64,000 nt of DNA, from the NCBI GenBank assembly GCA_963718615.1, contig OY970368.1, forward strand, positions 2,912,001 to 2,976,000, written 5' to 3'. The notes under the pieces are model-generated. The model ran no database searches. It saw nothing but the letters and a program-made list of their open reading frames with translations, and was not told the origin of the DNA. Origin of the DNA: an uncultured cyanobacterium (GTDB lineage Bacteria > Cyanobacteriota > Cyanobacteriia > PCC-9006 > JAAUQQ01). Shown here in pieces: positions 16,353-30,967 of this stretch. Numbering within the stretch: the stretch's first letter is position 1; the number at the start of each line of letters is the position of its first letter. A program made the position numbers and the translations under genes.

Positions 16353-18995
16353 ATGGGACGTTGCCTCAGTCTCCTGTTTTGCTTATTGTACAGTTTAAGC
16401 AACGGCCTCGTGCTGGCGACTGAGGAGCCCTCTGAGCACTCCAAGGATCAGCCCTCTGAGCAGCCCTCTGAGCAGCCCACGAAGCGCTTCTCCAACGCCC
16501 TGCTGCAAAACGGCATCCAGCGCTATCAAGCCGGACAGACTCAAGCGGCAATTGATATGTGGAAACAGGCCCTTGCAGAAACGGCACAACCCTATCAGCA
16601 GGCTCTGCTGCTCAATTACCTAGCGTTGGCCTATCAACAGCTTGGACAAGTCCAACAAGCCCAGAGCGCTTTAATCCATGCGAAAACCCTGCTCGACGGT
16701 GAGCTCGACGGTGAATTGCCCCACGGCTTCGATCAACATCAAACGGCCTCTATTCAATCCCGTCTTCTCAATACCCAAGGTCGATTATATTGGTCGCAAG
16801 GTCAGATTGAGTTGGCTCAAGCGACCTGGCAAGCTGCCCAGGAGGCCTATGGCATCGCTGAAGATCCGGAAGGTCAACTGCTAGCAACACTCAACCGAGC
16901 GCAGGCGTTGATGGCCTTGGGATTTAATCACCAAGCAGAGGTTCAACTGAGCCAGAGCTATCAGCAATTACAACGTTATGCCCCCGATAACCCTAATCTG
17001 AGCGCCACAGGACTGCAATTGCTGGGCATCGTCTTGCGGCAGGTGGGTCAGCCTCAGCGATCGCAACAGATCCTGCAAGAAAGTCTCAGCATCACGCCCC
17101 CTACAGCAGTAAATCAGCAGGCTAAAACCCTTTTGGAACTGGGGAATGGCGAACAGGTTTTAGGCACTCGCTTGAAAACCCTGGGGAAACGGACAGACTC
17201 GCAAGCAGCGACACAGCAAGCTTTACAGTTTTATCAGCAAGCGGAAACCCTCGCAACGGAGCCGCTGGTGCAATGGCAAAGTCGATTAAATCGGCTGGCG
17301 CTCCTCGTGGATACGGATAATTCGCAGGCGATCGCGATCGCCTCCACCCTCCAAACCCAGCTCCCAGCCTTTCTCGCAACCCAGCCTCCCAGCCATGCAA
17401 CGGTCCAAGCCCAGCTCAATTTGGCAGACCGCCTCATTGACCTCGGACAAAATCCGGAGCCTCTCATTCAATCCACCCTGATTCAAGCCAAAACCCTAGC
17501 GGATTCCACAGCAATTTCCTATGCCCTTGGGCAGCGGGGCGCTTGGTTGGAGCAGCAACAGCAATGGGCTCAGGCTCAATATTGGACAGAGCAAGCCCTG
17601 GTAACACTTGATCCAGTCCAAGTGCCGAGTTTACGATATCGCTGGGAGTGGCAGCTCGGGCGGTTGCTGCGACAGCAACGGAATCTACCGGGGGCGATCG
17701 CCGCCTACCAAGACGCGGTCACTAGTCTCGAAGCGGTGCGGGGAGATTTGCTGTCTATTAATCCAGAACTCCAATTTTCCTTTCGAGATGATGTAGAACC
17801 AGTCTATCGTGAGTTGGTGGGTCTACTACTCGACGAGTCCAAGGCCAAGGACGGTGCTCCCAGCCAGTCCGTGCTTAAGCAAGCCATTCAGCAGGTTGAC
17901 GCATTGCAGCTCGCAGAATTGGAGAATTTTCTAGGTTGCAAACTGGCTCGAACCGTAGCGCTCGGAGCGGTTACCGCTGATCCAAAGGCGGCTAAGCTTT
18001 ACCCCTTGATTCTGGACGATCGCCTAGCCATTATCCTTGAACCCCCCGGACAACAACCGTTGCAGTACCATGAAATTCGTGTAGAACGCCTGATAGTGCA
18101 GCAGCAACTACAACAGCTTCGGCAAGATTTGGCGGCACCGGGACGGACACCAGAGGCGATCGCAGGACTCACCACCGTCTACCAATGGCTCATCCAACCC
18201 TTTGAAGCCCAACTGACAGCCCAGAATGCCGAAACCTTGGTGTTTGTCTTGGATGGGGATCTGCGCAATATCCCCATGGCGGCCCTCTATGACGGTGAGG
18301 ATTATTTAATTAGTCGCTATGCCGTGGCCCTGTCACCTCGATTGCAGTTGTTTGATCCGAGACAGCGATCGCGCAATCTGTCGGTATTTCTCGGGGGCGT
18401 TGGTAAGCCTCAGGATTTGGCTGGGCGGAGTTTTCCGGCGATCGCCAACCTAGAACCCGAATTAGACGGTATCCGCGATCTCTTTTCCACTCCTCAACCT
18501 TTACTCAACGAATCTTTCACCAAACCTCAGCTCACTCAATCGTTATCCAGTCAATCCTTTTCAGCCATTCATCTCAAAACCCACGGCATCTTTAGCTCAG
18601 ACCCTGAAGAAACCTTTGTGGTCGCCTATGAAGGCTTGCTCACGGGGCAAGAGCTAGGGCAGTTGCTGCGGGGACGAGAAACCAAAGCAGGAACGCTCAG
18701 TCCAGTGGAACTCCTGGTATTGAGCGCCTGTTCTACGGCCCAGGGCGATAATCGGGCGGTCTTAGGAATGGCCGGATTGGCTGTCCAAGCGGGGGCGCAG
18801 AGTGTAGTTTCGACATTATGGGAAGCGCAGGATGTGCCAAATACAGCGTTGATGCTGCGCTTTTATGAGGCGTTGAAAAATCCAGCGGTGAGTCGGGCGG
18901 AGGCGTTGCGATCGGCACAGTTGTCGTTGCTGGAAGAGGGCTATACAACGCCCCATGTTTGGGCAACCTACGTGTTGGTGGGCAATTGGCTATAA
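16353..18995 (+). CDS. exported TPR-CHAT (caspase-like) protein
   Basis: N-terminal signal-like segment, TPR helices, SFRDDVEPVY, LRNIPMAAL, IHLKTHG (His), LLVLSAC (Cys), HVWATYVLVGNWL. Confidence 0.92.
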   Translation: MGRCLSLLFCLLYSLSNGLVLATEEPSEHSKDQPSEQPSEQPTKRFSNALLQNGIQRYQAGQTQAAIDMWKQALAETAQPYQQALLLNYLALAYQQLGQVQQAQSALIHAKTLLDGELDGELPHGFDQHQTASIQSRLLNTQGRLYWSQGQIELAQATWQAAQEAYGIAEDPEGQLLATLNRAQALMALGFNHQAEVQLSQSYQQLQRYAPDNPNLSATGLQLLGIVLRQVGQPQRSQQILQESLSITPPTAVNQQAKTLLELGNGEQVLGTRLKTLGKRTDSQAATQQALQFYQQAETLATEPLVQWQSRLNRLALLVDTDNSQAIAIASTLQTQLPAFLATQPPSHATVQAQLNLADRLIDLGQNPEPLIQSTLIQAKTLADSTAISYALGQRGAWLEQQQQWAQAQYWTEQALVTLDPVQVPSLRYRWEWQLGRLLRQQRNLPGAIAAYQDAVTSLEAVRGDLLSINPELQFSFRDDVEPVYRELVGLLLDESKAKDGAPSQSVLKQAIQQVDALQLAELENFLGCKLARTVALGAVTADPKAAKLYPLILDDRLAIILEPPGQQPLQYHEIRVERLIVQQQLQQLRQDLAAPGRTPEAIAGLTTVYQWLIQPFEAQLTAQNAETLVFVLDGDLRNIPMAALYDGEDYLISRYAVALSPRLQLFDPRQRSRNLSVFLGGVGKPQDLAGRSFPAIANLEPELDGIRDLFSTPQPLLNESFTKPQLTQSLSSQSFSAIHLKTHGIFSSDPEETFVVAYEGLLTGQELGQLLRGRETKAGTLSPVELLVLSACSTAQGDNRAVLGMAGLAVQAGAQSVVSTLWEAQDVPNTALMLRFYEALKNPAVSRAEALRSAQLSLLEEGYTTPHVWATYVLVGNWL

Positions 18996-19035
18996 GTGCG
19001 ATCCAGTGTAATAGATATGCCTTCTCCTGGCTAGA

Positions 19036-19236
19036 TTACGGGTTTACGCCCCTCAGTGCGAGTTCATGGATATAGCTTTGTCCTAAAAATTGAAGGCGAT
19101 CGCGATAGATACTTGACTGAGGTTGGCGATCGGGGTAATACGAATGACCTAAGAATTTCAGCTCAATTGGGGGTGAAGCAACGGCGACTCCGGCTGGGTT
19201 GATTTCGTAGCTGATTCCACGATATTTCAGAATCAT
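19036..19236 (-). CDS. DUF4278 family small protein
   Basis: MILKYRGISY start plus two further LxFLGxSY repeats. Confidence 0.75.
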   Translation of the reverse strand: MILKYRGISYEINPAGVAVASPPIELKFLGHSYYPDRQPQSSIYRDRLQFLGQSYIHELALRGVNP

Positions 19237-19317
19237 GACTGCTTTTCCTGGCTGTTGTGATAGTACTAGAGATCAAGGGCAACAGATTCAGAGATTGCTG
19301 TATTGCCCTGTAGAAGT

Positions 19318-19350
19318 CTCCTACGGCTCTCCAATAGAAATTATTCAGAT
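19318..19350 (-). promoter_or_regulatory. putative alternative-sigma promoter, copy 1 (toward the DUF4278 gene)
   Basis: Minus strand reads ATCTGAATAA-tttctattggagagc-CGTAGGAG; same boxes and 15-nt spacer as copy 2. Confidence 0.65.
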
Positions 19351-19480
19351 CAAACGGACAAAATCACTCAAAATTACTGCGATGACTGGAGTCGTTCAAG
19401 CATTTGATCTTTTCCCGAATGCTTGCTGAGCTTCACGCTTAGTCTTCCTAAAGCGGCTTATTTATCAAAATTCCATCTCT

Positions 19481-19513
19481 ATCTGAATAAACCTGTTGAG
19501 TGCTTCGTAGGAG
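19481..19513 (+). promoter_or_regulatory. putative alternative-sigma promoter, copy 2 (toward the RTX gene)
   Basis: ATCTGAATAA-acctgttgagtgctt-CGTAGGAG. Confidence 0.65.
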
Positions 19514-19609
19514 GTTGCAGAGGAGAGTGTAGCGCGCTGCTGAACGAGAACCACATCTCTACAGTTTTTCTCCTTTGATTCAACCGATTACCCCACAGGA
19601 GCAAATATC

Positions 19610-20776
19610 ATGGGAACTAAAGTTCTTGGACCTAATGACTACAATTTTTCAGCATCTAAAGAGTGGGATTACTTTCCTTATCCCAGCAAAGTCTGGAAAC
19701 CTTGGACAATTACTGGCAATGCTCGCAATAACACGCTAACGGGAGGTGAAAAAAACGACACGATTTTTGGAGGATTGGGTGACGATACCATCTTTGGTTT
19801 AGCAGGAAATGATTTGCTTTTTGGTCAAGCCGGTGACGATCGCCTATACGGGGGCAGCGGGGATGACTCGCTCTCTGGTTCGGATGGCAATGATGTGCTT
19901 GAAGGAGGAGCAGGCAACGATTATATGGATGGGGGCTCTGGCAACGACTACTATTACGTTGATTCTTTCAATGACAAAATCATTGAACTCAGCGGTTTTG
20001 GTCTCGACACCGTTGAAACCAGCCTGAGTGGCTATAACCTAGCGGCTAATGTCGAGAATTTGGTTGTTTCGCCGTTCTCCAATGGTGGAAGCTTTTTCGG
20101 CAACTATCTCGCTAACACAATGTATGGCAACGCTACTGGCAATGAACTCTACGGTATGGATGGCAATGATACTATCTTTGGCCGGGGAGGAAACGATATC
20201 CTAATTGGCGGTGCTGGCAGTGATGTTCTCTATGGCGATGACGGCAATGATCTCTTGTATGGATCTTACGATGCAGACCAGCTCTATGGAGGCGCTGGTC
20301 ATGATGTGCTGTACGGTGGCGGTGGCAATGACTACCTCGTTGCGGGGACAGGGACCGACGTTCTCTTGGGTGAGTCCGGCAATGATACTCTGGTCGGATC
20401 TGAAGGCTCAGGCTCCGCGATGCTCAATGGCTCTGCCACCGTCGCAAGCAATTACTTTGATCCGGGAGAGTTCGATACACTGATCGGTGGCATCGGATAC
20501 GATACGTTTGTTCTTGGTGGAACTTGGGGTGTTTCCTACTTTGAGAGTGGCGATGGCTATGCCACGATCCAAAACTTTGATTATTCCAGAGACAAAATCC
20601 AGGTAAAAGGAGGCTTGGGCACCTACAGTTTAGAGTTTAAGGAACTCGGCGGCGTTGGCTCTAGTGCGAAGGATACGGAGATCTACTTTACGAGCAGCAA
20701 TGGCGTAAAAGACCGGATTGGTATTGTTCAGGACACGACCAATATCAGCATCAACCGTGACTTTTTGTTTGTTTAG
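19610..20776 (+). CDS. RTX/hemolysin-type calcium-binding repeat protein
   Basis: Many GGxGxDxLx nonapeptides; AGGAG RBS; C-terminus DFLFV; no signal peptide (type I secretion-like). Confidence 0.92.
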   Translation: MGTKVLGPNDYNFSASKEWDYFPYPSKVWKPWTITGNARNNTLTGGEKNDTIFGGLGDDTIFGLAGNDLLFGQAGDDRLYGGSGDDSLSGSDGNDVLEGGAGNDYMDGGSGNDYYYVDSFNDKIIELSGFGLDTVETSLSGYNLAANVENLVVSPFSNGGSFFGNYLANTMYGNATGNELYGMDGNDTIFGRGGNDILIGGAGSDVLYGDDGNDLLYGSYDADQLYGGAGHDVLYGGGGNDYLVAGTGTDVLLGESGNDTLVGSEGSGSAMLNGSATVASNYFDPGEFDTLIGGIGYDTFVLGGTWGVSYFESGDGYATIQNFDYSRDKIQVKGGLGTYSLEFKELGGVGSSAKDTEIYFTSSNGVKDRIGIVQDTTNISINRDFLFV

Positions 20777-20811
20777 TTTGTAGTCGGTAGTCAGGGTGTC
20801 TAGAATGAGTG

Positions 20812-20840
20812 CAGGATGGGATTTTCCCATCCTGTTTCTT
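20812..20840 (+). terminator. hairpin terminator between the RTX and FHA-like genes
   Basis: caggatggga-ttt-tcccatcctg followed by tttctt. Confidence 0.7.
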
Positions 20841-20866
20841 CGGCTTGTTGTTTGGGGAGATTCAAA

Positions 20867-23800
20867 ATGATACGCGATCGCACCTCCATACACATGACCC
20901 AAAAGGTATTAAAAAGCCTTCTCTCTGGACTGCTAGCCGGAACAGAAATTTGTCTGGGAGCGCCAGTAACTGCACAAAACATCACATTAGATGGATCTTT
21001 AGGACCTGTTAGAGACTTAGGAAATGGTCCGGTCTATGAAATTCAGCAAGCGGATGGAACGACGGTTGGGGAAAATTTGTTTCATAGTTTTGGTCAATTC
21101 AATTTAAGTGTTGGTGAGAAAGCCTCGTTCCAAAGCACGCCGACCATTCAAAACATACTGACTAGAGTAACAGGTGGTTCGACTTCATCGATTGATGGAT
21201 TGATATTTACTGAAAGTCCAGCCGTCAATTTCTTTTTGATTAATCCATCAGGAATTATATTTGGACCAAATGCTCAACTTGACATTGGTGGAACAACAAG
21301 AGGGGATTTCACCGCGACAACCTTAGATGCGCTTGTATGGTCAGACGACAATCGATTTGATGCGGTGAATCCAGATGGAGCAGAGGCATTGTTGAAAATT
21401 GTGGGGGATCCGAGTGGCTTCCTAGGCTCTCAGCGGCGGATGGCAGAAATTGCTTTAGAAGGAAGTTTTTTACAAGTTTATAAGAATCAAGATTTGCGTT
21501 TCTTAGGGGGAGGAATTAACGTAGATGGAGCACTTCTGATTGCACCGTCTGGGAGAGTAGGACTCGGCTCTACAAACAACTTGGGAACAGTCTCAATCAA
21601 TCAGAACGGAAGTTTTCAATTCACGGATCAATTTGAGCGTGGAGATGTGCAGTTTAACAATGGTGCTCTAGTAGATGTAACGAGTGAAGACAAAGGGGAT
21701 ATCCAAGTCATTGGCAAGGATATCAACGTGTTAGAGGGAAGTATATTAAGGGCAGGCATCGCCAGAAACTTAGGAACAGATTTCAGTCAAGCTGGAGACA
21801 TAAAAGTAGATGCGACAGGAACAGTGAGCGTTACTGGGAACTTTAGTCAAGTCGTGAATGATGTTAGAACCGGAGCAAGCGGAAAAGGAGGAAATATTGA
21901 GATCATTGCACGAAATTTAATCGTTCAAGGAAATGGTTCACGATTAAGCACGATCTTATTTGGAACGGGAGTTGCTGGGAATGTTCAGATCAAAACTAGA
22001 GATCTTGTACTTCTTCAAGGCAGTACAAATGGACAATTTCCGGTTGGTATTACCAGCAGTGTGGAAACACTAGGAGAAGGTAAGGGAGGAAATGTAATTA
22101 TTGAAACCTCTGAGCTAAAGGTGATTGATACTGCTCAAATAGATGCTAGCACCAACGGTCAAGGGGATGCAGGAAATATTTTCATTAATGCTCGCGATCA
22201 AGTCCTTTTCAAGGATAACAGTACTGCATTTAGTCTGGTTGGAAAAGATGGAGAGGGAAAGGGAGGGGGTATCACAATCAACACAGGAGCACTAGAGGTT
22301 CGTGATGGTTCTCAACTCGTTGCATCAACTCTTGGCGTAGGAAATGCAGGAAATATTTTCATTAATACTATTGATTCAACAGAACCGATGAAAACAGGTC
22401 ATGTCCTGTTCCAGAATGGCGATGCTTTCAGTAATGTTGGGGAAACAGGTTCTGGAAGTGGTGGTAACATCGTAATTAATACCACTGAATTAGAAGTTCG
22501 CAATGGAGCTCAGCTCATTGCTAGCACCGAGGGCATTGGAAACGCAGGGAATATCCTGATTAATGCTCGCGATTTCGTCATTTTTGAAGGACGTACAATT
22601 GATGGACGATTTGGTAGTGATGCATTTAGTAGTGTGGAAAAGACGGGCATAGGAAAAGGTGGAGACATTGTAATCAATACAAACATTCTAGAAGTAAAAA
22701 ATGGGGCTCAACTAACCGCTGAAACGAAAGGACAGGGGAACGCAGGAAATATAAAATTGATAGTGAGAGATCGTGTTCTGTTTGAAGGAAGCAACACAGC
22801 TGCATTGAGCAATGTCAATAGCATAGGAAATGGTAATGGTGGTGATATTATAATTGTCACGGGTACTCTCGAAATTCTTAGGGGGGCTCAACTAATTGCG
22901 ACAACCCAAGGTGAAGGTGATGCAGGGAATATCAGTCTCGCAGTGCGCGACCGTTTACGTATTGAGGGTACAGACCCCATTCAAGGGTTTTCCAGCGGCA
23001 TTCTTACAAGTAATGCTAATCCCAATCCTAGTAAAAGTATAAGGAGCGGTGGAGATATTTCTATTACAACCCCTCAACTCCAGATTACTAATGGAGCTGT
23101 GATTGATTCTCGAACTGTTAATGATGGACCAGGGGGTGATATCACCCTTAATGTGGATGACCTAACTCTTATCGATGGTGGACAACTTCTCAGCACCAGT
23201 GACGGGAGCGGTCCCGCAGGCACTGTCCGCATCAATGCTACCAATGCTCTCCGAATTACAGGCAGCGACCCCATTTACACCGACCGCCGTGCTCAGTTCG
23301 GCAGTGCCGTTGCTTCCATCTCCGCCAACAGCGGCATCTACGTTCGCTCCACCGACACTGGAGCTGCTGGTCAGGTTATCATCGGCGACCCAAACCTTGG
23401 CACATTACCACGACTTCTATTGCTTGACGACGGTGAGATCGTTGCTGACTCTAATGCAGTAACGGGTGGCGATATCAGCCTAAATTTGGCGCAATCTTTG
23501 GTAATGCGCAACAATAGTCTCATCTCCGCTACTGCAGGACGCAGCGAGGGTGGAGGCGACGGGGGCAATATTACGATCAGCGTCCCCTTTGTACTCTCTC
23601 TTCCTGATGAAAATAGCGACATCATCGCAAACGCTTTTAGTGGTACAGGGGGCAACATTACGATCAACGCCGACGCCATCCTGAACTTTAGTCTCAACGA
23701 AGACAAGAAATCCTTCGAGCAATTGCGTCAGCAATCCACTAACGATATCAGTGCCAGCTCCCAATTCGGCAGCAACGGCACCCTCAACCTTGCTGGACTC

Positions 23801-24160
23801 AACGTAGATCCCACCCGAGGCATTAGCCAACTCCCCAGCACCGTCAGCAGCACCCAACCCAGCCAAGGCTGCCAAACCGCTAGCACCGGCCAAGCCACCT
23901 CAGCCGAATTCTTCACCACCGGACGCGGTGGCCTTCCCCCCAGTCCCAGCGATGCCCTCAGCAGCAACACCATTCTCGACGACCTACGTGTGCCATCCGA
24001 GTTCGCGGTGACAGAAGTAATTCCGACCGCTGCCTCCACTTCACGCCCCATTACCGAAGCCACCCACTGGGAAATCAACGCCCAAGGCAAAGTTATGCTT
24101 GCGGCTCAAACGGCTGCTCCAGCAAAAGTTAATCACTGCAAGTTGCTCAGTCAAGATTGA
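20867..24160 (+). CDS. filamentous haemagglutinin N-terminal (TPS) domain exoprotein
   Basis: Signal peptide ..VTA-Q, NLFHSFGQFN, RVTGG..SSIDG, INPSGIIFG (TPS domain), GxGGNIxI beta-helix repeats, C-terminal TGRGGLP..EA..W..GKV; alternative start 20894. Confidence 0.9.
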   Translation: MIRDRTSIHMTQKVLKSLLSGLLAGTEICLGAPVTAQNITLDGSLGPVRDLGNGPVYEIQQADGTTVGENLFHSFGQFNLSVGEKASFQSTPTIQNILTRVTGGSTSSIDGLIFTESPAVNFFLINPSGIIFGPNAQLDIGGTTRGDFTATTLDALVWSDDNRFDAVNPDGAEALLKIVGDPSGFLGSQRRMAEIALEGSFLQVYKNQDLRFLGGGINVDGALLIAPSGRVGLGSTNNLGTVSINQNGSFQFTDQFERGDVQFNNGALVDVTSEDKGDIQVIGKDINVLEGSILRAGIARNLGTDFSQAGDIKVDATGTVSVTGNFSQVVNDVRTGASGKGGNIEIIARNLIVQGNGSRLSTILFGTGVAGNVQIKTRDLVLLQGSTNGQFPVGITSSVETLGEGKGGNVIIETSELKVIDTAQIDASTNGQGDAGNIFINARDQVLFKDNSTAFSLVGKDGEGKGGGITINTGALEVRDGSQLVASTLGVGNAGNIFINTIDSTEPMKTGHVLFQNGDAFSNVGETGSGSGGNIVINTTELEVRNGAQLIASTEGIGNAGNILINARDFVIFEGRTIDGRFGSDAFSSVEKTGIGKGGDIVINTNILEVKNGAQLTAETKGQGNAGNIKLIVRDRVLFEGSNTAALSNVNSIGNGNGGDIIIVTGTLEILRGAQLIATTQGEGDAGNISLAVRDRLRIEGTDPIQGFSSGILTSNANPNPSKSIRSGGDISITTPQLQITNGAVIDSRTVNDGPGGDITLNVDDLTLIDGGQLLSTSDGSGPAGTVRINATNALRITGSDPIYTDRRAQFGSAVASISANSGIYVRSTDTGAAGQVIIGDPNLGTLPRLLLLDDGEIVADSNAVTGGDISLNLAQSLVMRNNSLISATAGRSEGGGDGGNITISVPFVLSLPDENSDIIANAFSGTGGNITINADAILNFSLNEDKKSFEQLRQQSTNDISASSQFGSNGTLNLAGLNVDPTRGISQLPSTVSSTQPSQGCQTASTGQATSAEFFTTGRGGLPPSPSDALSSNTILDDLRVPSEFAVTEVIPTAASTSRPITEATHWEINAQGKVMLAAQTAAPAKVNHCKLLSQD

Positions 24161-24246
24161 ATCAGAACAAGTGCCTCATTAGTTCTTTCATTACCGCTGA
24201 TCATTACCGTTGATAAAGTCCATTACCACATTATCCAGCAGTCCCT

Positions 24247-25071
24247 ATGGCAACTAATATTGAACAACAGATCCTTGTAGCCGAAGAGCGTCTTCAGAAC
24301 GCGATGCTTACTTCAGACATCAATGCTCTTGACGAGTTGATTGCCGCTGAACTCATCTTCACCAATCACCTAGGACAAGTGCTGAGCAAACAGGATGATC
24401 TCGCTCTGCATCACTCTGGAATCCTGACCTTTCATAGGCTTGAGCCCTCAGAAAGACAGATCAAAATCAATCTACCTATCGCAGTTGTTTCAGTTCGTAT
24501 GCAGGTATCGGGTCTATACAACGAGGTCCCGTTTATGGATAACCTGCGATACACACGCACTTGGTGTTTGTCGCAAAACGGTGCATGGCAGGTGGTTGCT
24601 GGCCATAGCAGTGTCGTGCAGGCCGAACCGCCGATCGCAACAACGATCGATATTGGCCTCACGCACCTTGCGCTTCCGGTTGCTGATGTTGACAAGAGTG
24701 TTCAATTTTATGCGGCCTATGCATCAATGCAGGTCATTCATCGTCGCGTCGATTCAGAAACAGGGGTGGCTGTGGTGTGGCTTTGCGATCGCACCCGCCC
24801 CTTCGTCATTGTTCTGATTCAAGCCAACCCCGTCCATCCGATTTTGTCGCCCCTAGGCCATCTCGGAATTGGGTGCGAGAGTCGGGAACAAATGGATGCA
24901 CTTTGCGCGAGGGCACAGCAAGAAGGTGTTCTGATTCAAGCGCCCAAGGAGTCTGGTTATCCCATCGGCTATTGGGCTTTTTTGCGTGATCCAGATGGTC
25001 ATACGCTAGAGCTCTCCTACGGCCAAGAAATTGGCTTGAACGTCGACAAAACTGCTGGATTGCAATGGTAA
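24247..25071 (+). CDS. NTF2-like (DUF4440) plus VOC/glyoxalase fusion protein
   Basis: N-half ..RYTRTW...WQVVAGHSS (NTF2-like); C-half GLTHLALPV.DVDKS..FY, LGHLG, FLRDPDGHTLELS (VOC). Confidence 0.8.
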   Translation: MATNIEQQILVAEERLQNAMLTSDINALDELIAAELIFTNHLGQVLSKQDDLALHHSGILTFHRLEPSERQIKINLPIAVVSVRMQVSGLYNEVPFMDNLRYTRTWCLSQNGAWQVVAGHSSVVQAEPPIATTIDIGLTHLALPVADVDKSVQFYAAYASMQVIHRRVDSETGVAVVWLCDRTRPFVIVLIQANPVHPILSPLGHLGIGCESREQMDALCARAQQEGVLIQAPKESGYPIGYWAFLRDPDGHTLELSYGQEIGLNVDKTAGLQW

Positions 25072-25095: not shown

Positions 25096-25818
25096 TTAAG
25101 GATTATAAAATGGTGCATTGAACTGCTCGACTAACCCTAGTTGTTCTAATAGTTGATGCCAGCGATCGCGCACTTCCCCATTCTCCGGCTGGTCCTGCAA
25201 CTGCTGGACAATCGCGTCCACCTCATCATACCAAGCCGCCCCTTCCGCTCCGGATTGCATCCGCTCAATTCCCGCATCCACACTAAGTTGAACCGTGGAG
25301 TTTTCGGCAACACACTGCACCGTCAGATACCAACGGTAGGGTATGCCAGGTTGTAGGCTCACCTCAGGAGGTAGGGTCAGACGGATAAACCCTGGGCTCG
25401 GAGGTAGGGCGATCGCCTGTCGATACAACCGCTCTTTTTCATCGATTCCGGCATTCACCACAAATTCGGCTTGCCGCATTTCGGCTTGAGCCCCAGGAAC
25501 ATACACCCAAATCTTCGGCTGAGGGCTGTGAGTCGTCAGCGGATTTTGGGCCGGGACCAATGCCGATAGGACCTGTTCGGAGTTTTTGCAGGATTCACTT
25601 AAGGATCCCCCAGCTCGGGTTTGGTTAGGTCGCTGGCTTCGAGGTTTCGGGATCACGGTTCGCTGGCGGGTGGGCGTAGACTGGCCAATCTTAGATGTTC
25701 TGGATTGCGATGTTCTAGGGTGTACGGTTTGTGCAATAACTGATAGTCCAGGATAAGACCATACACTAGCCATTAAAGCCACAAGCCCTAACTTCTTCAG
25801 CCCTCTCATCCTATTCAT
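25096..25818 (-). CDS. DUF928 domain exported protein
   Basis: Signal peptide, GGSLS..C, LSALVP, P.IWVYVP, YRWYLTVQC, WYD, W..LLEQLGL. Confidence 0.85.
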   Translation of the reverse strand: MNRMRGLKKLGLVALMASVWSYPGLSVIAQTVHPRTSQSRTSKIGQSTPTRQRTVIPKPRSQRPNQTRAGGSLSESCKNSEQVLSALVPAQNPLTTHSPQPKIWVYVPGAQAEMRQAEFVVNAGIDEKERLYRQAIALPPSPGFIRLTLPPEVSLQPGIPYRWYLTVQCVAENSTVQLSVDAGIERMQSGAEGAAWYDEVDAIVQQLQDQPENGEVRDRWHQLLEQLGLVEQFNAPFYNP

Positions 25819-28297
25819 GATTAGCCTCCTGAACCTTTAAATGGGAACGTAAATCTGAACGTAAATTTGAACGCAAGCCAGAGTGCATACCTAGGCCATA
25901 GCCCAGCATCCAGCCCAGGACAGAGGGCACTAGGGGCAACCAGAGGCCCTGGGCGATCGCCCCTAAACTGACGCCATACAACACCATCACACCACCCACA
26001 CCACTCCCCCAGAGTAATGACTGAAACCGGGGTGGATTTTGTTTCGGGTCACGCTGCAAACCCTGGCCCAAACCACTGCCGAGGAAGGTCCAAGCCATAA
26101 TCCACAGCCCATCTCCCCATTGCCAATCATTCCACTGGGGCAAGGTCCAGATCAGCGGACGGCGATCGAGAACTGCGCTCAGCAACTGGCTGAGCTGATG
26201 GGCATGGACCCAAACCCCCGGCATTTCTCCGAGGGGCGTGGACAGAATATCTTGGCCCACGGGGGCTGTGGTGCCGATCAGGACGATGCGATCGCCCACG
26301 GCTCCCGCAGGCAGTTGCCCTGACAAGACTGTTTCCAAACTCACCCCTTGCCCTGGCTGTGCCCCACGATAGTTGATTAAAATTTGACTGCTTAGCCCCT
26401 CAAGCTGTTGATAGGCCCCAAAGCGGCGGGGTAGGCTCGGCAAAACGGTTTGATCCAACACCCAGTTTTCTCGATCATCGAGGCTAATCTTTCGATCTTC
26501 AGCCCCCAAAAACTCGTGGGCTAACCGCAAACTTAGCCCTTGAATCGCTGTACAGTCTGAGAGTTCGCCTAGATTGGGATCAACAGATAGGAGTTGACGA
26601 CGAATCCTATCGGGAGTGAGCCAGGAAAGGGCAGGGAAGTCCTCCTGTAAATCGCTAAACGCAAGTTGTTGGGTTTGTTGGGTGGAATCAAATTCAGGGG
26701 GCGTCGCAAAGTTAGGGTCGCTCCCCCCACTCCAGCAAACGGTGCTCAAACTGGGATGCAGTCGAAACTGTTCCAGTAATTCTGCTCGACCTTCTCCCCG
26801 AGGCTGAGCTCGATGCATGTCTAGGCCAACCGCTCGGGGCTGATCACTGTACAGTTTTTTCAGCAACTGGGCCAAGAGCTTATCTTCTAGAGGATAGCCG
26901 TAACGGAGAGTATCCGCTTGAGTCACTTCGACGACTAAGATGTGAGGATCTGTTGTTTCGGCAGGGCGCTGGCGCAGCAGCAAATCATAGGCAAAGAGTT
27001 CGAAGGGCTGTAGGAAACCTAGAAACCGTAAACCCAAGAGGAGGAGCGTGGCGATCGCTCCTCGTACAAGAGCAGGAGTGAACCGCCAGGGAAAAGCAGT
27101 CCGTACAGAAGTGAGCGCTGACTCTGTCCGTGTTGGCTCTGTCGGTGACAAAATCACGGGTCCTGAACTTGGACGCAATCGGGTCAGTACCTGCCAAGTC
27201 AGCGACATCGCCGCTGGATTTTGATGAATCACCGGTAGCCAAGAGGCACAGAGAAACTGATCTTCCAGGGCCTGAAGCTTTTCCCGTGCTTCCCGCACCG
27301 CCTTGTAAAAGGGCTGCCCTCCGGCAAAGGCCCGTAAAAAATGCTTCAGGAACGCTTGGGCCACCGGATCTGGCACAGGCTCCCGCATGACGATGAGCTG
27401 AGGCAGATTGAGCGTTGCTAAACCACGGGCTAGCCCAAGACCATCACAGGAGTTAAAAATCGCTAATTGCAGACCTCGGGCGATCGCAGCACCGAGGGCA
27501 TAGTCCAACTGCTCAATCGTTAGCGATTCGGTCGAGTTAATGGCAATTTGCCCCGTGGCATCCCCCAGGTGACTTTGACTGTGCCCCGCGAAGAAGAGAA
27601 TATCCCAGCCTGACTCAGCCCAGAGCGCCTCGTGAAGCTGCGATCGCGAGGGTTCCACCAGGAATTGGGTATCCGCCTGGGGCAGTTGGGAGAGGAGGGT
27701 GCGATCGCCTGCCACATCAATGCCGACAGAATTACCCAATATCGCTAAGATTCTCACCGTACCGGCACGAGCAACGGGTTCTGACATACCCACAGGCCGA
27801 TAGTTGAGACTCCCCAGGGCGAACTCAGCCTGGGGATAATCGCGGAAAAACAGCCATAGATGCCAGGGCAACCGCCTTGTGTTTGGACAATCGGTTTCGA
27901 GAATGAGCCGAATCGGATCTTCCGGGTTGAGGTAGAGCCGTAACTGTTGGTCAATCCGCTGGAAACCCGGCATACCCAGCCACTGATTGAGATCCCGACT
28001 TAACTGCTCCGACAACTGTTCAAACCGTTCCCGCGACACCTGATTCAGAGTATTTTCAGTCACAAGCTGAATTCTTAACCGGTCCTGGAGCGCGAGGTAA
28101 TGGGCCTGCCAGTCGCGATAGTTTTGATCAAGCTGGGGAGCCGGAGGCAGCGTGCCGCTAGCCTTCAGTCGTTGGGAGAGATGCTGATCTAAGCTAGTCT
28201 GCATCGTTACCGCCAGAAACCCTTGCTCCAAGTCTCCCCCGGACAAGGTGAGAATGACCTGTTTCTCTTGAAGGGTGGCAGGCATTCGGCTCTCCAT
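25811..28297 (-). CDS. membrane CHAT-CHASE2 protein
   Basis: N-terminal CHAT (LPWHLW, DILFFAGHS, LAIFNSCDGLG, LIVMREPVPD), TM helix, CHASE2 (ELFAYD, VGLDM, RIVLIG, GVWVHA), three C-terminal TMs; ATG overlaps upstream TGA (TGATG). Confidence 0.9.
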   Translation of the reverse strand: MESRMPATLQEKQVILTLSGGDLEQGFLAVTMQTSLDQHLSQRLKASGTLPPAPQLDQNYRDWQAHYLALQDRLRIQLVTENTLNQVSRERFEQLSEQLSRDLNQWLGMPGFQRIDQQLRLYLNPEDPIRLILETDCPNTRRLPWHLWLFFRDYPQAEFALGSLNYRPVGMSEPVARAGTVRILAILGNSVGIDVAGDRTLLSQLPQADTQFLVEPSRSQLHEALWAESGWDILFFAGHSQSHLGDATGQIAINSTESLTIEQLDYALGAAIARGLQLAIFNSCDGLGLARGLATLNLPQLIVMREPVPDPVAQAFLKHFLRAFAGGQPFYKAVREAREKLQALEDQFLCASWLPVIHQNPAAMSLTWQVLTRLRPSSGPVILSPTEPTRTESALTSVRTAFPWRFTPALVRGAIATLLLLGLRFLGFLQPFELFAYDLLLRQRPAETTDPHILVVEVTQADTLRYGYPLEDKLLAQLLKKLYSDQPRAVGLDMHRAQPRGEGRAELLEQFRLHPSLSTVCWSGGSDPNFATPPEFDSTQQTQQLAFSDLQEDFPALSWLTPDRIRRQLLSVDPNLGELSDCTAIQGLSLRLAHEFLGAEDRKISLDDRENWVLDQTVLPSLPRRFGAYQQLEGLSSQILINYRGAQPGQGVSLETVLSGQLPAGAVGDRIVLIGTTAPVGQDILSTPLGEMPGVWVHAHQLSQLLSAVLDRRPLIWTLPQWNDWQWGDGLWIMAWTFLGSGLGQGLQRDPKQNPPRFQSLLWGSGVGGVMVLYGVSLGAIAQGLWLPLVPSVLGWMLGYGLGMHSGLRSNLRSDLRSHLKVQEANHE

Positions 28298-29664
28298 CAC
28301 AAACAAAACTCTTCGATGAAAGTGAGTTGAGTCTCTTGCTCCGGCATCTGAGCAGTTTGACTATCTCCGTCAATGTCCCCGTCAATATCCCCGTCAATAT
28401 CCCCGTGAGCTTCTGGAGACTGCCACTCAACTCGCACTTGAAAGGATTCTCCAGCACTGCCTGTCAGCGGCGTGAGTTGCAGATAGGTATCTGCTGTCCC
28501 ACTTTTGATCGCTTGCAAGTCGATCGCCTGATTCGGATCGTGCAAAATTAGCTGAATTCCCGCAGGAAGATGTTGAGCTTGAAGGGGATGAAGTTGAATC
28601 TGTACCCGCAGAAGAGGAGCATCCTCAAGGATATCCAGAGCAGTTTCGCGAACAACAGAAACTAATAGGACCAAGGTTGTGATATTGTCAGTTTCGCCTA
28701 GAAAAATGCGTTTTGCCCGTTGTAGAGGCACAAGATTGGATGGACGATCGCCCCCACCGCTACGCAACTGAGAAGCGAAGGTTAACTCTGGACCCAATAC
28801 GTCTGCTAGCGATCGCCACCCCGCTTCAAACTGTCCCTCAAACCAACGACTTAACCGCGTCATCTGAGCATCCACTTGGCCAAGCCAACTCTGGCAGCGT
28901 CGCTGATACAATCGATCGCGCCAGTCTCTATCCTGTATCAAAGCCCCCCACTGGGCGAACGGCAGGCTCAAGCGAGGAAACACCAGCGTCGGATCTCCTA
29001 AGCGTTCGAGTAAATTGTCCTGCTGTATGTCCGACAACCTTGGCAAAGCCTCTAGCGCCGTCTGACTGTCTCGAATCCCGCAAAAGCGCAGCGTGGTGCT
29101 CAACGTCGTCATATCCTCCACCAAATTGGGCCGAGCCAGGGAATAGGTTCGCGTTTCCGGGTCATAATCGCCCCATTCCTTCAACTGCCGGTGGCTCCCA
29201 TAGCCCCAAACCCTCAGTCCGTAAGACTCCTCTCCTTCCTCGGTTTCACTGCAGACCTGAACCGCCAGATAATAGTGACCCATCCAATCCGGCAAATCCA
29301 CCCATTCCTGAGGCACAACCAACGTCTCTGAATCAATCTCATCACTAGGAATCACCACCAGGCGCACCCCATCACCTGCGACCCCATCACCCAAAACCTG
29401 CACCACACAACCCCCAACCCCCTCCCAAACCGCAGGCCAATCCGACAGCGGTAAACCGGGCCGAACTGCCCCCATCCCCCCCACCTTGAGCTCCGCCAAC
29501 CCCGGCACCAACCCCACCAAACACAACTGACCTAGATAATCATCCCAGCACCGTCCTGGCTGGCAATGGCGTTGGCTTTGCTGCCAACTGGCCTGGACTA
29601 GGGCGGAATCCAGGGGAATCCACCAATTTCGGACATCAGCCAATAACTCCGCCAACAGCGCCAT
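28297..29664 (-). CDS. DUF1822 family protein (candidate anti-sigma/protease substrate)
   Basis: LVVPQEWVDLPDW..HYYLAVQV, VWGY..H..LK, LSRWFEGQFEAGW..L, C-terminal E.F.L. Confidence 0.85.
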   Translation of the reverse strand: MALLAELLADVRNWWIPLDSALVQASWQQSQRHCQPGRCWDDYLGQLCLVGLVPGLAELKVGGMGAVRPGLPLSDWPAVWEGVGGCVVQVLGDGVAGDGVRLVVIPSDEIDSETLVVPQEWVDLPDWMGHYYLAVQVCSETEEGEESYGLRVWGYGSHRQLKEWGDYDPETRTYSLARPNLVEDMTTLSTTLRFCGIRDSQTALEALPRLSDIQQDNLLERLGDPTLVFPRLSLPFAQWGALIQDRDWRDRLYQRRCQSWLGQVDAQMTRLSRWFEGQFEAGWRSLADVLGPELTFASQLRSGGGDRPSNLVPLQRAKRIFLGETDNITTLVLLVSVVRETALDILEDAPLLRVQIQLHPLQAQHLPAGIQLILHDPNQAIDLQAIKSGTADTYLQLTPLTGSAGESFQVRVEWQSPEAHGDIDGDIDGDIDGDSQTAQMPEQETQLTFIEEFCL

Positions 29665-29673
29665 AAATCCCCC

Positions 29674-30967
29674 TCATTCCCTCTCGTTTGAATCCTCGTT
29701 TGAATCCTCGTTTGAACCCTGGTGTGAGCCATAGTGCAGCATTAACCAAGCCTCGATCGCGTCACCTTGCTGACGTATACGATCTGGGTCCGGGACAATA
29801 TTCAATGACTGCTGACTCCAAACCACAAGTGCGCTTAGCAACGCTTCCCTGGCCCGGAGCAAATAGCGCGCCACCGAGGGTTGAGAACAGCCCATCTGCT
29901 TGGCGATCTGAGATTGAATTAAACCCTGACGATAGTACAGCTCCAGTACCCTTTTCCAGTCGGGTTTAAGGGTGGGAATAGCCTGTTCTAGGACTTGATA
30001 GAGCTGCGATCGCTGCTGCCGTCGTTCGTTCAGCTCCTCCTGAGCAATCAAATTCGTTAACAACGAAGGACTCCCCATAGATCCTTCCAGGGGGAATGCT
30101 GCGAGCGGGATCCGCGACCCGCTCCAAACGCTCTTCTCCCTCCTCGCCAAACTGCATTTGATTGAGCGATTGAACCGGAGGATAAAGATAGTTCCGCAAC
30201 CAACGGGCCGTTTGGGCTAGCCATTGTTCGAGTTGCTGGGGCGTTGCTCGGGGTTGCTCGGGGGATTGGGTTTGGTTGTAGGCTTGGGCGATCGCCTGCC
30301 AATCTTCTGGAGCGGGAGCTACCTGCCGTTTTGTTCCTCCCGGTCCCGGTCCAATCACCCACCCCTCTCGGAAGCAGAGCCAAGCCCACAGATAACGCTG
30401 TTGAAGACTGGGAGAAAGAGATTGTTGATTGAAGGTTTCTTGCAACCGTTTGCGGCTCGTTCGTCGCAATAGGGACCAGTCGCTACAAACATCTAAGGCC
30501 TTTTGCTGTCGCACCGCATCCTTAAGTCGATGGGTAAATGCCAGCTCGGCATAGGTCTCTAAATTGGCACCCCGATCCGGTGAAAACCCCGCAAGAACTT
30601 TCGGAAACTGGGATTGAGCAATCTGAAAATAGTCCGCTAGGGTTTGATACGAAACCGTTACAAACTGTGCCATTTTTTGATGAAACCGATAGCTAGCCCA
30701 GTAGCAGGACTCTTGAACATAGGCGAGCAGATGTTGGGATGGCGTGACGGGGGATGGGGTAGCGGGGGATGAAGACTGGATCTGCTGCCGATACTGCTTA
30801 TACCAGTAATGCTCCCAGGCGATTTTGGCAGTTTGTTGGGGTTGGAGCTGCAACGCTTGTACCATTTTCCGTTTGAGCATTGGATCCCGGCTCCACCGGC
30901 TGGCGGTCCCGGCTTCGAGCTGAAGGAACGTTGAAAAGAGATCAACGAGGTCTTGCCGAGGGCGCAT
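29674..30967 (-). pseudogene. HetZ-related sigma-70 family sigma factor split by a +1 frameshift (ORFs 29966-30967 and 29674-30150)
   Basis: N-part MRPRQDLVDLFSTF..HLLAYVQESCYW..F.PDRGANL..YA..CSDWSLL; region-4 HTH (LELYYRQGLIQSQIA..SQPSVARYL) is in a different frame; removing one base near the C5 tract (30090-30094) gives one 430-aa ORF. Confidence 0.8.

Follow-up and report, generated by a model that had tools for sequence, protein, structure and literature searches.

Which factor switches on two divergent genes whose shared upstream region carries the same bipartite motif twice, back to back? The question is raised by a stretch of DNA from an uncultured cyanobacterium (contig OY970368.1 of assembly GCA_963718615.1, positions 2,912,001 to 2,976,000 of the forward strand), the whole of which, 64,000 nucleotides (nt), is called the window here; its genome of 6.10 Mb is referred to as G000, other genomes bear G-numbers and fetched loci L-numbers. 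A divergent spacer of 373 nt (19237-19609) separates a DUF4278-like open reading frame (ORF) on the minus strand from an RTX repeat protein gene on the plus strand, within a cluster that also encodes caspase-like CHAT proteins, a DUF1822 protein and, 10 kb from the motif pair, a sigma factor resembling those of the extracytoplasmic function (ECF) group. An earlier interpretation of the window, the sequence-only reading, had taken the motif for an ECF-like -35/-10 element read by the sigma factor of the cluster. From our comparative analyses, we conclude that the motif pair probably represents divergent promoters for this alternative sigma factor, with TGAATAA as the -35 box and CGTA as the -10 box, 15 nt apart. 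The assignment is supported by the conservation of this core in an orthologous cluster, a family motif with the same N15 spacing, its enrichment in genomes encoding the sigma factor, its distance to the genes it faces, and the tracking of its variants with sigma clades.

A twin motif between divergent genes

The motif ATCTGAATAA-N15-CGTAGGAG occurs twice in the spacer without a mismatch, at 19481-19513 (plus strand) and 19350-19318 (minus strand), exactly as the sequence-only reading had described it. Each copy is oriented toward its neighbouring gene, and the two form an inverted pair, 130 nt apart, whose 15-nt spacers and flanks show no resemblance. On the RTX side, the -35-type box ATCTGAATAA lies at 19481..19490 (conserved core TGAATAA, 19484-19490) and the -10-type box CGTAGGAG at 19506..19513 (conserved core CGTA, 19506-19509). 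On the DUF4278 side, the corresponding boxes occupy 19341..19350 and 19318..19325 of the minus strand, with the cores TGAATAA read from 19347 to 19341 and CGTA from 19325 to 19322. The ATG of the RTX gene is found 100 nt past CGTA, and that of the DUF4278-like ORF 82 nt past the CGTAGGAG box and 85 nt past the CGTA core.

Such a pair is not expected by chance. A pattern-free test, which scored non-overlapping repeated 18-nt two-block dyads, direct or inverted, with gaps of 8-24 nt, found no repeated dyad in any of 2000 shuffles of the 373-nt spacer. When up to three mismatches were allowed, the two copies were the only matches to ATCTGAATAA-N15-CGTAGGAG in the window, and none of 100 dinucleotide shuffles contained at least two. 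The shorter pattern TGAATAA-N15-CGTA occurs four times in G000; the two occurrences outside the spacer are antisense within long ORFs.

Other readings of the spacer were considered. A housekeeping sigma70 promoter was rejected, as no TTGACA-N16-18-TATAAT-like hexamer pair was found in 18900-19700 (shuffle mean 1.2). The same region contains no intrinsic terminator and gave no Rfam match, by which a known RNA family was likewise rejected. A Shine-Dalgarno reading of AGGAG in CGTAGGAG was dropped, the frame from the nearest TTG (19515) ending after five codons. The sequence-only reading had named a third alternative, in which the motifs would be the terminal repeats of a multi-copy miniature inverted-repeat transposable element; the spacer is single copy in the 6.10-Mb genome, its longest match elsewhere being 19 nt, which rules out such an element.

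Conservation in an orthologous cluster

Among the genomes compared, only one close orthologous cluster was found, on contig C177 of G001, a member of the same family and of another genus. Identity to the window amounts to 69-75% for the sigma factor, 74% for CHAT-TPR and 59-65% for DUF1822, and the sigma orthologue is encoded in one intact frame of 427 amino acids (aa). The gene order is rearranged, with TPS1, glyoxalase, RTX, TPS2 and CHAT-TPR on one strand and without a DUF4278 gene. The gap between the glyoxalase and RTX genes contains TGGTGAATAACGCTTCTTGCTCCTTCGTACAAG, which conforms to TGAATAA-N15-CGTA and lies 94 nt before the RTX ATG (100 nt in the window), so that the motif stands upstream of the orthologous gene as well. 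A blastn comparison of the spacer upstream of the G001 RTX gene with that of the window detected no similarity beyond this core. From the comparison we conclude that the conserved core consists of 7 + 4 letters at exact spacing, TGAATAA-N15-CGTA; all three sites of this type have the N15 spacing.

The functional boxes are thus shorter than the 10-mer and 8-mer first proposed: TGAATAA and CGTA are conserved, whereas the additional letters common to both G000 copies, ATC before the -35 core and GGAG after the -10 core, are not. A third shared feature, the pentamer CTGAA 26 nt past each copy, is present at 19540-19544 (plus) and 19291-19287 (minus) as had been noted, but it is not conserved in G001 and is probably a coincidence. 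The chance that the seven extra adjacent letters match is about 6e-5, which leaves room for a strain-specific constraint or a shared origin of the copies. Together with CTGAA they hint at common descent or added constraint, as would be expected if the pair were the relic of a local inverted duplication or of mobile-element terminal repeats, or an RNA-level motif in both 5' leaders, in each case without promoter function. We regard this explanation as very improbable, since the segment is single copy, the spacers and flanks of its two copies are unrelated, the core occupies the same place in G001, the family motif occurs in many genomes and Rfam gave no match.

In metagenomes, a scan with the CHAT-TPR alignment yielded 47 loci with a best identity of 53%, none closer than G001. 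A query with the glyoxalase gene, which is not specific to the cluster, returned 80 loci and found the site only in the locus corresponding to the G001 contig; two near-matches from this query (L111 and L131) lie in or at ORFs without cluster genes and were rejected. The exact long pattern, searched across eight genomes of the order, gave a single foreign match, within a transporter ORF, which we attribute to chance. As a separate observation on the G001 cluster, the matches to CHAT-CHASE2 and to DUF928 are spread over two or three frames each (G001:C177 15157-18411, L070), which may reflect frameshifts or metagenome assembly errors.

A related motif across cyanobacteria

For a wider comparison we used 20 kb around 20 distant sigma homologues, three paralogous loci of G000 and the 47 CHAT-TPR metagenome loci. 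The exact G000 motif was absent from the distant sigma loci, where only the window's own sites matched, and from the metagenome loci, in which one-mismatch matches numbered 10 (2 in the control) and lay mostly within genes. An unbiased dyad count in 535 upstream regions of 72 sigma or CHAT-TPR loci revealed, besides A/T-rich noise, the dyad TGCAT-N17-CCTA in 10-11 loci, seen in several registers (equivalent to CATAA-N15-CCTA). The pattern TG[AC]ATAA-N15-C[CG]TA had 19 matches as against none in the reversed control (1,055,881 nt); at the other spacings from N11 to N20, the same boxes had 0-5 matches, and 0-3 in the reversed control. We write the family motif as TG[C/A]ATAA-N15-C[C/G]T[A/G].

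Ten loci of a Nostocales type share one arrangement: the TGCAT of the site lies across the sigma start codon, on the other strand, and the site faces away from the sigma gene, toward a divergent gene whose product, about 264 aa long, has a signal peptide. The distance from site to gene is 60-63 nt in most of these loci, 150-153 nt in two and longer in one. The -35 element TGCAT is here the reverse complement of the sigma start codon plus the second codon (L039-L047, L051 and L054; for example L041:2980-3005). A polymerase at such a site would cover the translation start of the sigma gene, a possible route of feedback.

Other loci place the site before RTX or secreted-protein genes. Three intergenic sites occur in L048, each at 58-63 nt from the gene that follows; one of these genes encodes an RTX protein. 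A weight matrix built from 33 sites revealed further sites with a CGTG-type -10 box upstream of RTX genes in L044 and L049; at a threshold of at least 12 bits it returned 20 rows, 14 of them training sites, and none in the reversed control. L049 has a site before both of its RTX genes and L274 (G311) before an RTX gene. L271, the second cluster of G027, is built like the window, with CHAT-TPR, the site and RTX in succession and DUF928, CHAT-CHASE2, DUF1822 and the sigma gene on the opposite strand. Throughout G000, TGNATAA-N15-CNTA is not enriched overall (27 matches, 25 in the control), but in intergenic DNA it is (13 versus 2); the sites found there stand ahead of a further RTX gene, a TPS-TPR-CHAT gene and the genes for a trypsin-like peptidase and a secreted protein of 164 aa. 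In total, a family-type site lies 36-100 nt upstream of nine RTX genes, distributed over seven genomes. Six of these were identified as RTX genes by Pfam (those of the window, L048, G000 at 558 kb and L044, and both of L049) and three only by BLAST to the RTX protein of the window (G001, L271 and L274).

When the 33 sites were aligned, 24 had an A 8 nt after the -10 box, and the positions 11-13 nt after the box favoured GAA (these letters occurring in 25, 22 and 26 sites, respectively). The two G000 sites fit this preference poorly. It may mark the transcription start site or a leader element. Because of the conserved A, the predicted start of the rightward transcript in the window lies at about 19515-19519 (near 19517), and that of the leftward transcript at about 19316-19312 (near 19314).

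Two family-type sites were also observed in the 3' end of the sigma gene (L156:14177, minus strand; L044 about 4100, plus strand), about 30-190 nt before the DUF1822 start. They may be internal promoters for the DUF1822-CHAT-CHASE2-DUF928 genes.

Association with one sigma factor family

If the motif is read by the sigma factor, the two should occur together. A stringent variant, TGCATAAAA-N13-CCTA, had eight matches and no control match in five sigma-bearing genomes. All eight face a downstream gene; four are located at sigma start codons and four are intergenic, 49-86 nt before genes for signal-peptide or similar proteins. Five genomes of the same family without the sigma factor gave one match and one control match. 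We extended the count to a sample of 400 genomes of the phylum, 40 of which have a strong sigma match (E <= 1e-38). These 40 contained 54 matches (5 in the control), with at least one in 26 genomes, and the other 360 contained 46 (29 in the control), with at least one in 43; the genomes are related, so that these counts overstate independence and the associated Fisher values are descriptive only. Position separates the two groups further: 15 of 26 sites in sigma-bearing genomes lie 30-90 nt before a start codon, versus none of 13 elsewhere, and seven of those 13, from genomes without a strong sigma match, lie within ORFs.

The variants of the motif follow the phylogeny of the sigma factor. On a maximum-likelihood sigma tree of 27 rows, TGAATAA/CGTA corresponds to the clade of the main G000 sigma factor and that of G001 (support 100/100), TGCATAA/CGTG to the clade of L049, L271 and L050 (100/100), and TGCATAA/CCTA to a clade of 12 rows (90/85), ten of which have a site in the fetched DNA. 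L156, with TGAATAA/CCTA, is placed elsewhere on the tree. L050 is the sigma factor of G311, within the CGTG clade, and the CGTG-type site before an RTX gene in this genome is far from that sigma gene. These correspondences amount to three or four independent associations, a number that is suggestive and falls short of proof. Taken together, the comparisons show an element that is directional, bipartite, rigidly spaced, located at leader distance, kept in the orthologous cluster and both co-occurring and co-varying with one sigma family, properties from which the promoter function is predicted.

Features of the sigma factor and its gene

Two frames are needed to read the sigma gene of the window (29674-30967, minus strand). 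Its first 333 aa give a weak match to TIGR02937, and Sigma70_r4_2 is found above the cut-off in its C-terminal part (41.3 bits, and 33.2 bits in the G001 orthologue). Sigma70_r2 was found only weakly and in one homologue (19 bits versus a cut-off of 24). On an intact paralogue, TIGR02937 matches with an E-value of 1.2e-18 over residues 76-371, with a long insertion between sigma2 and sigma4. A domain search gave no match to sigma3, and an uncharacterised linker of about 100 aa is present. Because of the weak sigma2, the long linker insertion and the lack of a detected sigma3, we refer to the protein as ECF-like, a label that falls short of proof that it is an ECF sigma factor. Members of the family, present in 62 of 401 sampled genomes of the phylum (E <= 1e-5), share a length of about 390-430 aa, an N-terminal extension, a weak sigma2, a long linker and an ECF-type sigma4. 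Adjacency of the sigma and DUF1822 genes is always kept in homologous loci, and other frequent neighbours are genes for caspase-like CHAT proteases and DUF928 as well as TPS and RTX genes.

Compared with the intact G001 orthologue, the sigma gene of the window shifts frame by one base at a point between about 30107 and 30070, within the sigma2-sigma4 linker; the shift could be a real pseudogene mutation or an assembly indel. Since the cognate sigma gene is frameshifted, the promoters may be silent in G000, or served by one of three further intact copies (C1 at 1.75, 2.16 and 2.24 Mb). That the sites are promoters of this sigma family which in G000 are read by an intact paralogue, with no role for the frameshifted protein, is in our view unlikely. 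It would account for the cognate gene lying in two frames beside three intact paralogues, and for the TGCATAA-type sites before RTX, TPS-TPR-CHAT and secreted-protein genes in the same genome. Against it, the TGAATAA/CGTA variant tracks the clade formed by the main G000 sigma factor and that of G001, the N-terminal part of the main sigma factor shares only 34-36% identity with the paralogues, and the frameshift, in a stretch rich in homopolymers, may have arisen in assembly.

Weighing the promoter assignment

Several observations weigh against promoters read by the sigma factor of the cluster. The frameshift in the cognate gene is one of them. The exact TGAATAA/CGTA variant is known from only three sites in two genomes, and the extra letters ATC, GGAG and CTGAA, conserved neither in G001 nor in the motif family, are left without explanation. 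No -35 box contains the AAC that is typical of ECF promoters. Thirteen of the 54 matches in sigma-bearing genomes overlap the conserved sigma start codon, where the motif is partly fixed by coding sequence, and the genomes counted are related, so that their independence is overstated. Training sites made up 14 of the 20 rows of the weight-matrix scan. Twelve of 25 sigma loci lack the generalised site in the roughly 20 kb fetched. A loose scan of the phylum with TGMATAA-N15-CGTRKA was, among the matches listed, about as frequent as its control; owing to its last letter this pattern cannot match the window's own sites, and only its TGCATAA..CGTGTA subset is informative. The weight-matrix scan found no site of at least 12 bits upstream of the sigma gene in G000 or G001, so that the autoregulation usual for ECF sigma factors is missing.

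Finally, a DNA binder other than a sigma factor, co-inherited with the clusters, would fit most of the co-occurrence data. The boxes would then be operators of a conventional repressor or activator, a reading also favoured by the inverted arrangement of the two copies 130 nt apart and by the lack of the canonical AAC; co-occurrence does not distinguish a sigma factor from another DNA binder encoded in the cluster. We nevertheless consider operators improbable. The sites are directional, and single copies face a downstream gene at 36-100 nt; the two boxes are neither alike nor palindromic, and their N15 spacing is rigid. Among the cluster proteins scanned, only the sigma factor has a Pfam DNA-binding domain, and the spacer has no sigma70-type promoter for such a factor to control. 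Promoters of the ECF-like sigma factor thus remain the probable assignment. The rigid spacing of the two boxes is as in ECF-type promoters, and CGT is found in the -10 box of G000, G001 and the CGTG clade, the largest clade having CCTA instead.

Predicted interaction of the sigma factor with DUF1822

A fold model of the G001 sigma factor with DUF1822 scored 0.84, and the best of three controls 0.09. The score expresses the confidence that the model places in its prediction. Of 157 solved complexes, 116 attained this mark, as did 2 of 215 mismatched pairs, a calibration that is approximate here because the alignments were self-supplied (14 natural homologues per protein). The runs share at least 76% of contacts, and the predicted local distance difference test (pLDDT) value of the partner is at least 69. 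In the model, DUF1822 contacts the sigma factor through its N-terminal half, at the sigma2, linker and sigma4 regions, in an anti-sigma-like pose. The modelling supports binding of the sigma factor by DUF1822 and makes the latter a candidate anti-sigma factor.

Organisation of the gene cluster

Cluster genes were assigned with Pfam. The DUF4278-like ORF (19036-19236, minus strand; 66 aa), the predicted target of the minus-strand promoter, reached E 4e-5 and 24.3 bits, just below the cut-off of 25.3, and the RTX gene (19610-20776, plus strand) matched HemolysinCabind at 7e-64; both names given in the sequence-only reading therefore hold, the first with this reservation. Convergent with the DUF4278-like gene lies the gene for a caspase-like TPR-CHAT protein (16353-18995, plus strand), a member of the conserved cluster. 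RTX is followed on the plus strand by genes for a TPS-domain, filamentous-haemagglutinin-like protein (20816-24160) and a DUF4440-glyoxalase protein (24247-25071). Because of the short gaps and common strand, these three genes (19610..25071) appear to form one operon, the predicted target of the plus-strand promoter. The minus strand carries DUF928 (25096-25818), CHAT-CHASE2 (25811-28306) and DUF1822 (28297-29664), which lie downstream of the sigma gene and presumably constitute a signalling and regulation module (25096..29664).

The last gene of the predicted RTX-TPS operon (24247-25071) is a fusion of DUF4440 with a glyoxalase domain. The glyoxalase half alone corresponds to a gene that is widespread and strongly conserved among cyanobacteria, with 70-78% identity across 80 loci from many genera.

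Comparison with known systems

ECF promoters are bipartite, with a rigid spacer, commonly a CGT-containing -10 element and typically AAC in the -35 element; the consensus for SigW of Bacillus subtilis is TGAAAC-N16-CGTA. The promoters predicted here resemble this type in their bipartite -35/-10 structure, rigid spacer and, in G000 and the CGTG clade, a CGT -10 box, and the system as a whole in the small dedicated regulon predicted beside the sigma gene, the ECF-type region 4 and the TIGR02937 match. They differ in the -35 box TG[A/C]ATAA without AAC and in the CCTA -10 box of one large clade. The sigma factor, at about 400 aa, includes an N-terminal extension as well as a linker of about 100 aa; neither a site upstream of its gene nor a gene for a membrane anti-sigma factor was found, the position of the latter being taken by DUF1822.

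Closer parallels involve caspase-like proteases. In type III-E CRISPR loci, an ECF sigma factor (CASP-sigma) stands beside the TPR-CHAT protease Csx29 and is held by the partner Csx30, and matches to the sigma motif occur in promoters of its own locus, according to the available part of Strecker et al. 2022 (PMC10028731). By comparison with that account, the cyanobacterial cluster has no CRISPR effector, its partner protein is DUF1822 instead of Csx30, its predicted targets are RTX, TPS and secreted proteins, and cleavage by CHAT is deduced by analogy. For Myxococcus xanthus, the accessible portion of PMC11506125 describes the ECF sigma factor DdvS, the release of which was proposed to depend on the TPR-CHAT domain of DdvA, and several sigma-dependent promoters (P1-P4) in one genomic island, which likens it to the cluster studied here. 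DdvA is, in the same portion, a single transmembrane anti-sigma factor with a periplasmic TPR-CHAT, whereas in our cluster two proteins distinct from the predicted sigma binder, the cytoplasmic DUF1822, carry the CHAT domains (CHAT-CHASE2 and TPR-CHAT).

The same gene set, a caspase or CHAT protein with an ECF sigma factor and DUF1822, was described as EACC2-caspase neighbourhoods by Kaur, Iyer, Burroughs and Aravind 2021 (PMC8195603), who proposed that the sigma factor mediates transcription of a multiplicity of genes. The text available from that account gives no promoter motif, target genes or sigma-DUF1822 interaction, all of which are added here as predictions.

Proposed mechanism and significance

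Under the promoter assignment, a holoenzyme of RNA polymerase and the active sigma factor would initiate about 7-9 nt past CGTA, with a rightward transcript covering RTX-TPS-glyoxalase and a leftward transcript covering the DUF4278 gene. DUF1822 would hold the sigma factor like an anti-sigma factor, and the caspase-like proteases CHASE2-CHAT and TPR-CHAT would relay the signal that frees it. Release by CHAT proteases is suggested by the analogies with CASP-sigma/Csx30/Csx29 and DdvS/DdvA and by the neighbourhood proposal of Kaur et al.

More speculatively, sigma factor, DUF1822, CHAT-CHASE2 and TPR-CHAT might together make up a sigma switch, gated by a protease and widespread among filamentous cyanobacteria. 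CHASE2 would sense a surface signal and thereby trigger caspase-like cleavage, upon which the sigma factor would leave DUF1822, a new cytoplasmic anti-sigma factor, and turn to private promoters of the form TG[C/A]ATAA-N15-C[C/G]T[A/G], with secreted RTX, TPS and other exported proteins as the result. A bacterial caspase system, of the conflict or cell-death kind, would then have this switch as its transcriptional arm. Each sigma paralogue would use its own one-letter promoter dialect, so that one cell could run several such switches free of crosstalk. We hold this wider model to be tentative and rather less likely than otherwise.

Promoters of alternative sigma factors are a well-known kind of element. 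What is new here, as predicted, is the sigma family, the promoter class, the regulon of RTX and secreted proteins and the pairing of the sigma factor with DUF1822. A literature search, outside which lay supplements and most subscription journals, found no description of the motif, the regulon or a sigma-DUF1822 interaction, and DUF1822 is rarely mentioned in the literature searched. The sigma family has so far been without known function, regulon or promoter. A defined promoter motif makes its regulon predictable from sequence alone, and suggests an output of secreted RTX, TPS and signal-peptide proteins. The motif boxes and the sigma-DUF1822 pair also provide handles on how bacterial caspase-like systems are linked to transcription.

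Minor observations

TGCATAA-N15-CGTA also occurs 38 nt before an ORF of 53 aa (G000:C1:997816-997843, minus strand; L276:1519-1544), which, judged by eye, we take to resemble the phycobilisome degradation protein NblA; this site is probably due to chance. In the DUF928/CHAT-TPR gap of a paralogous cluster of G000 (C1:2166895-2167040), two inverted copies of AATCTCTGAAC, 143 nt apart, face each other within a stretch resembling a decayed gene.

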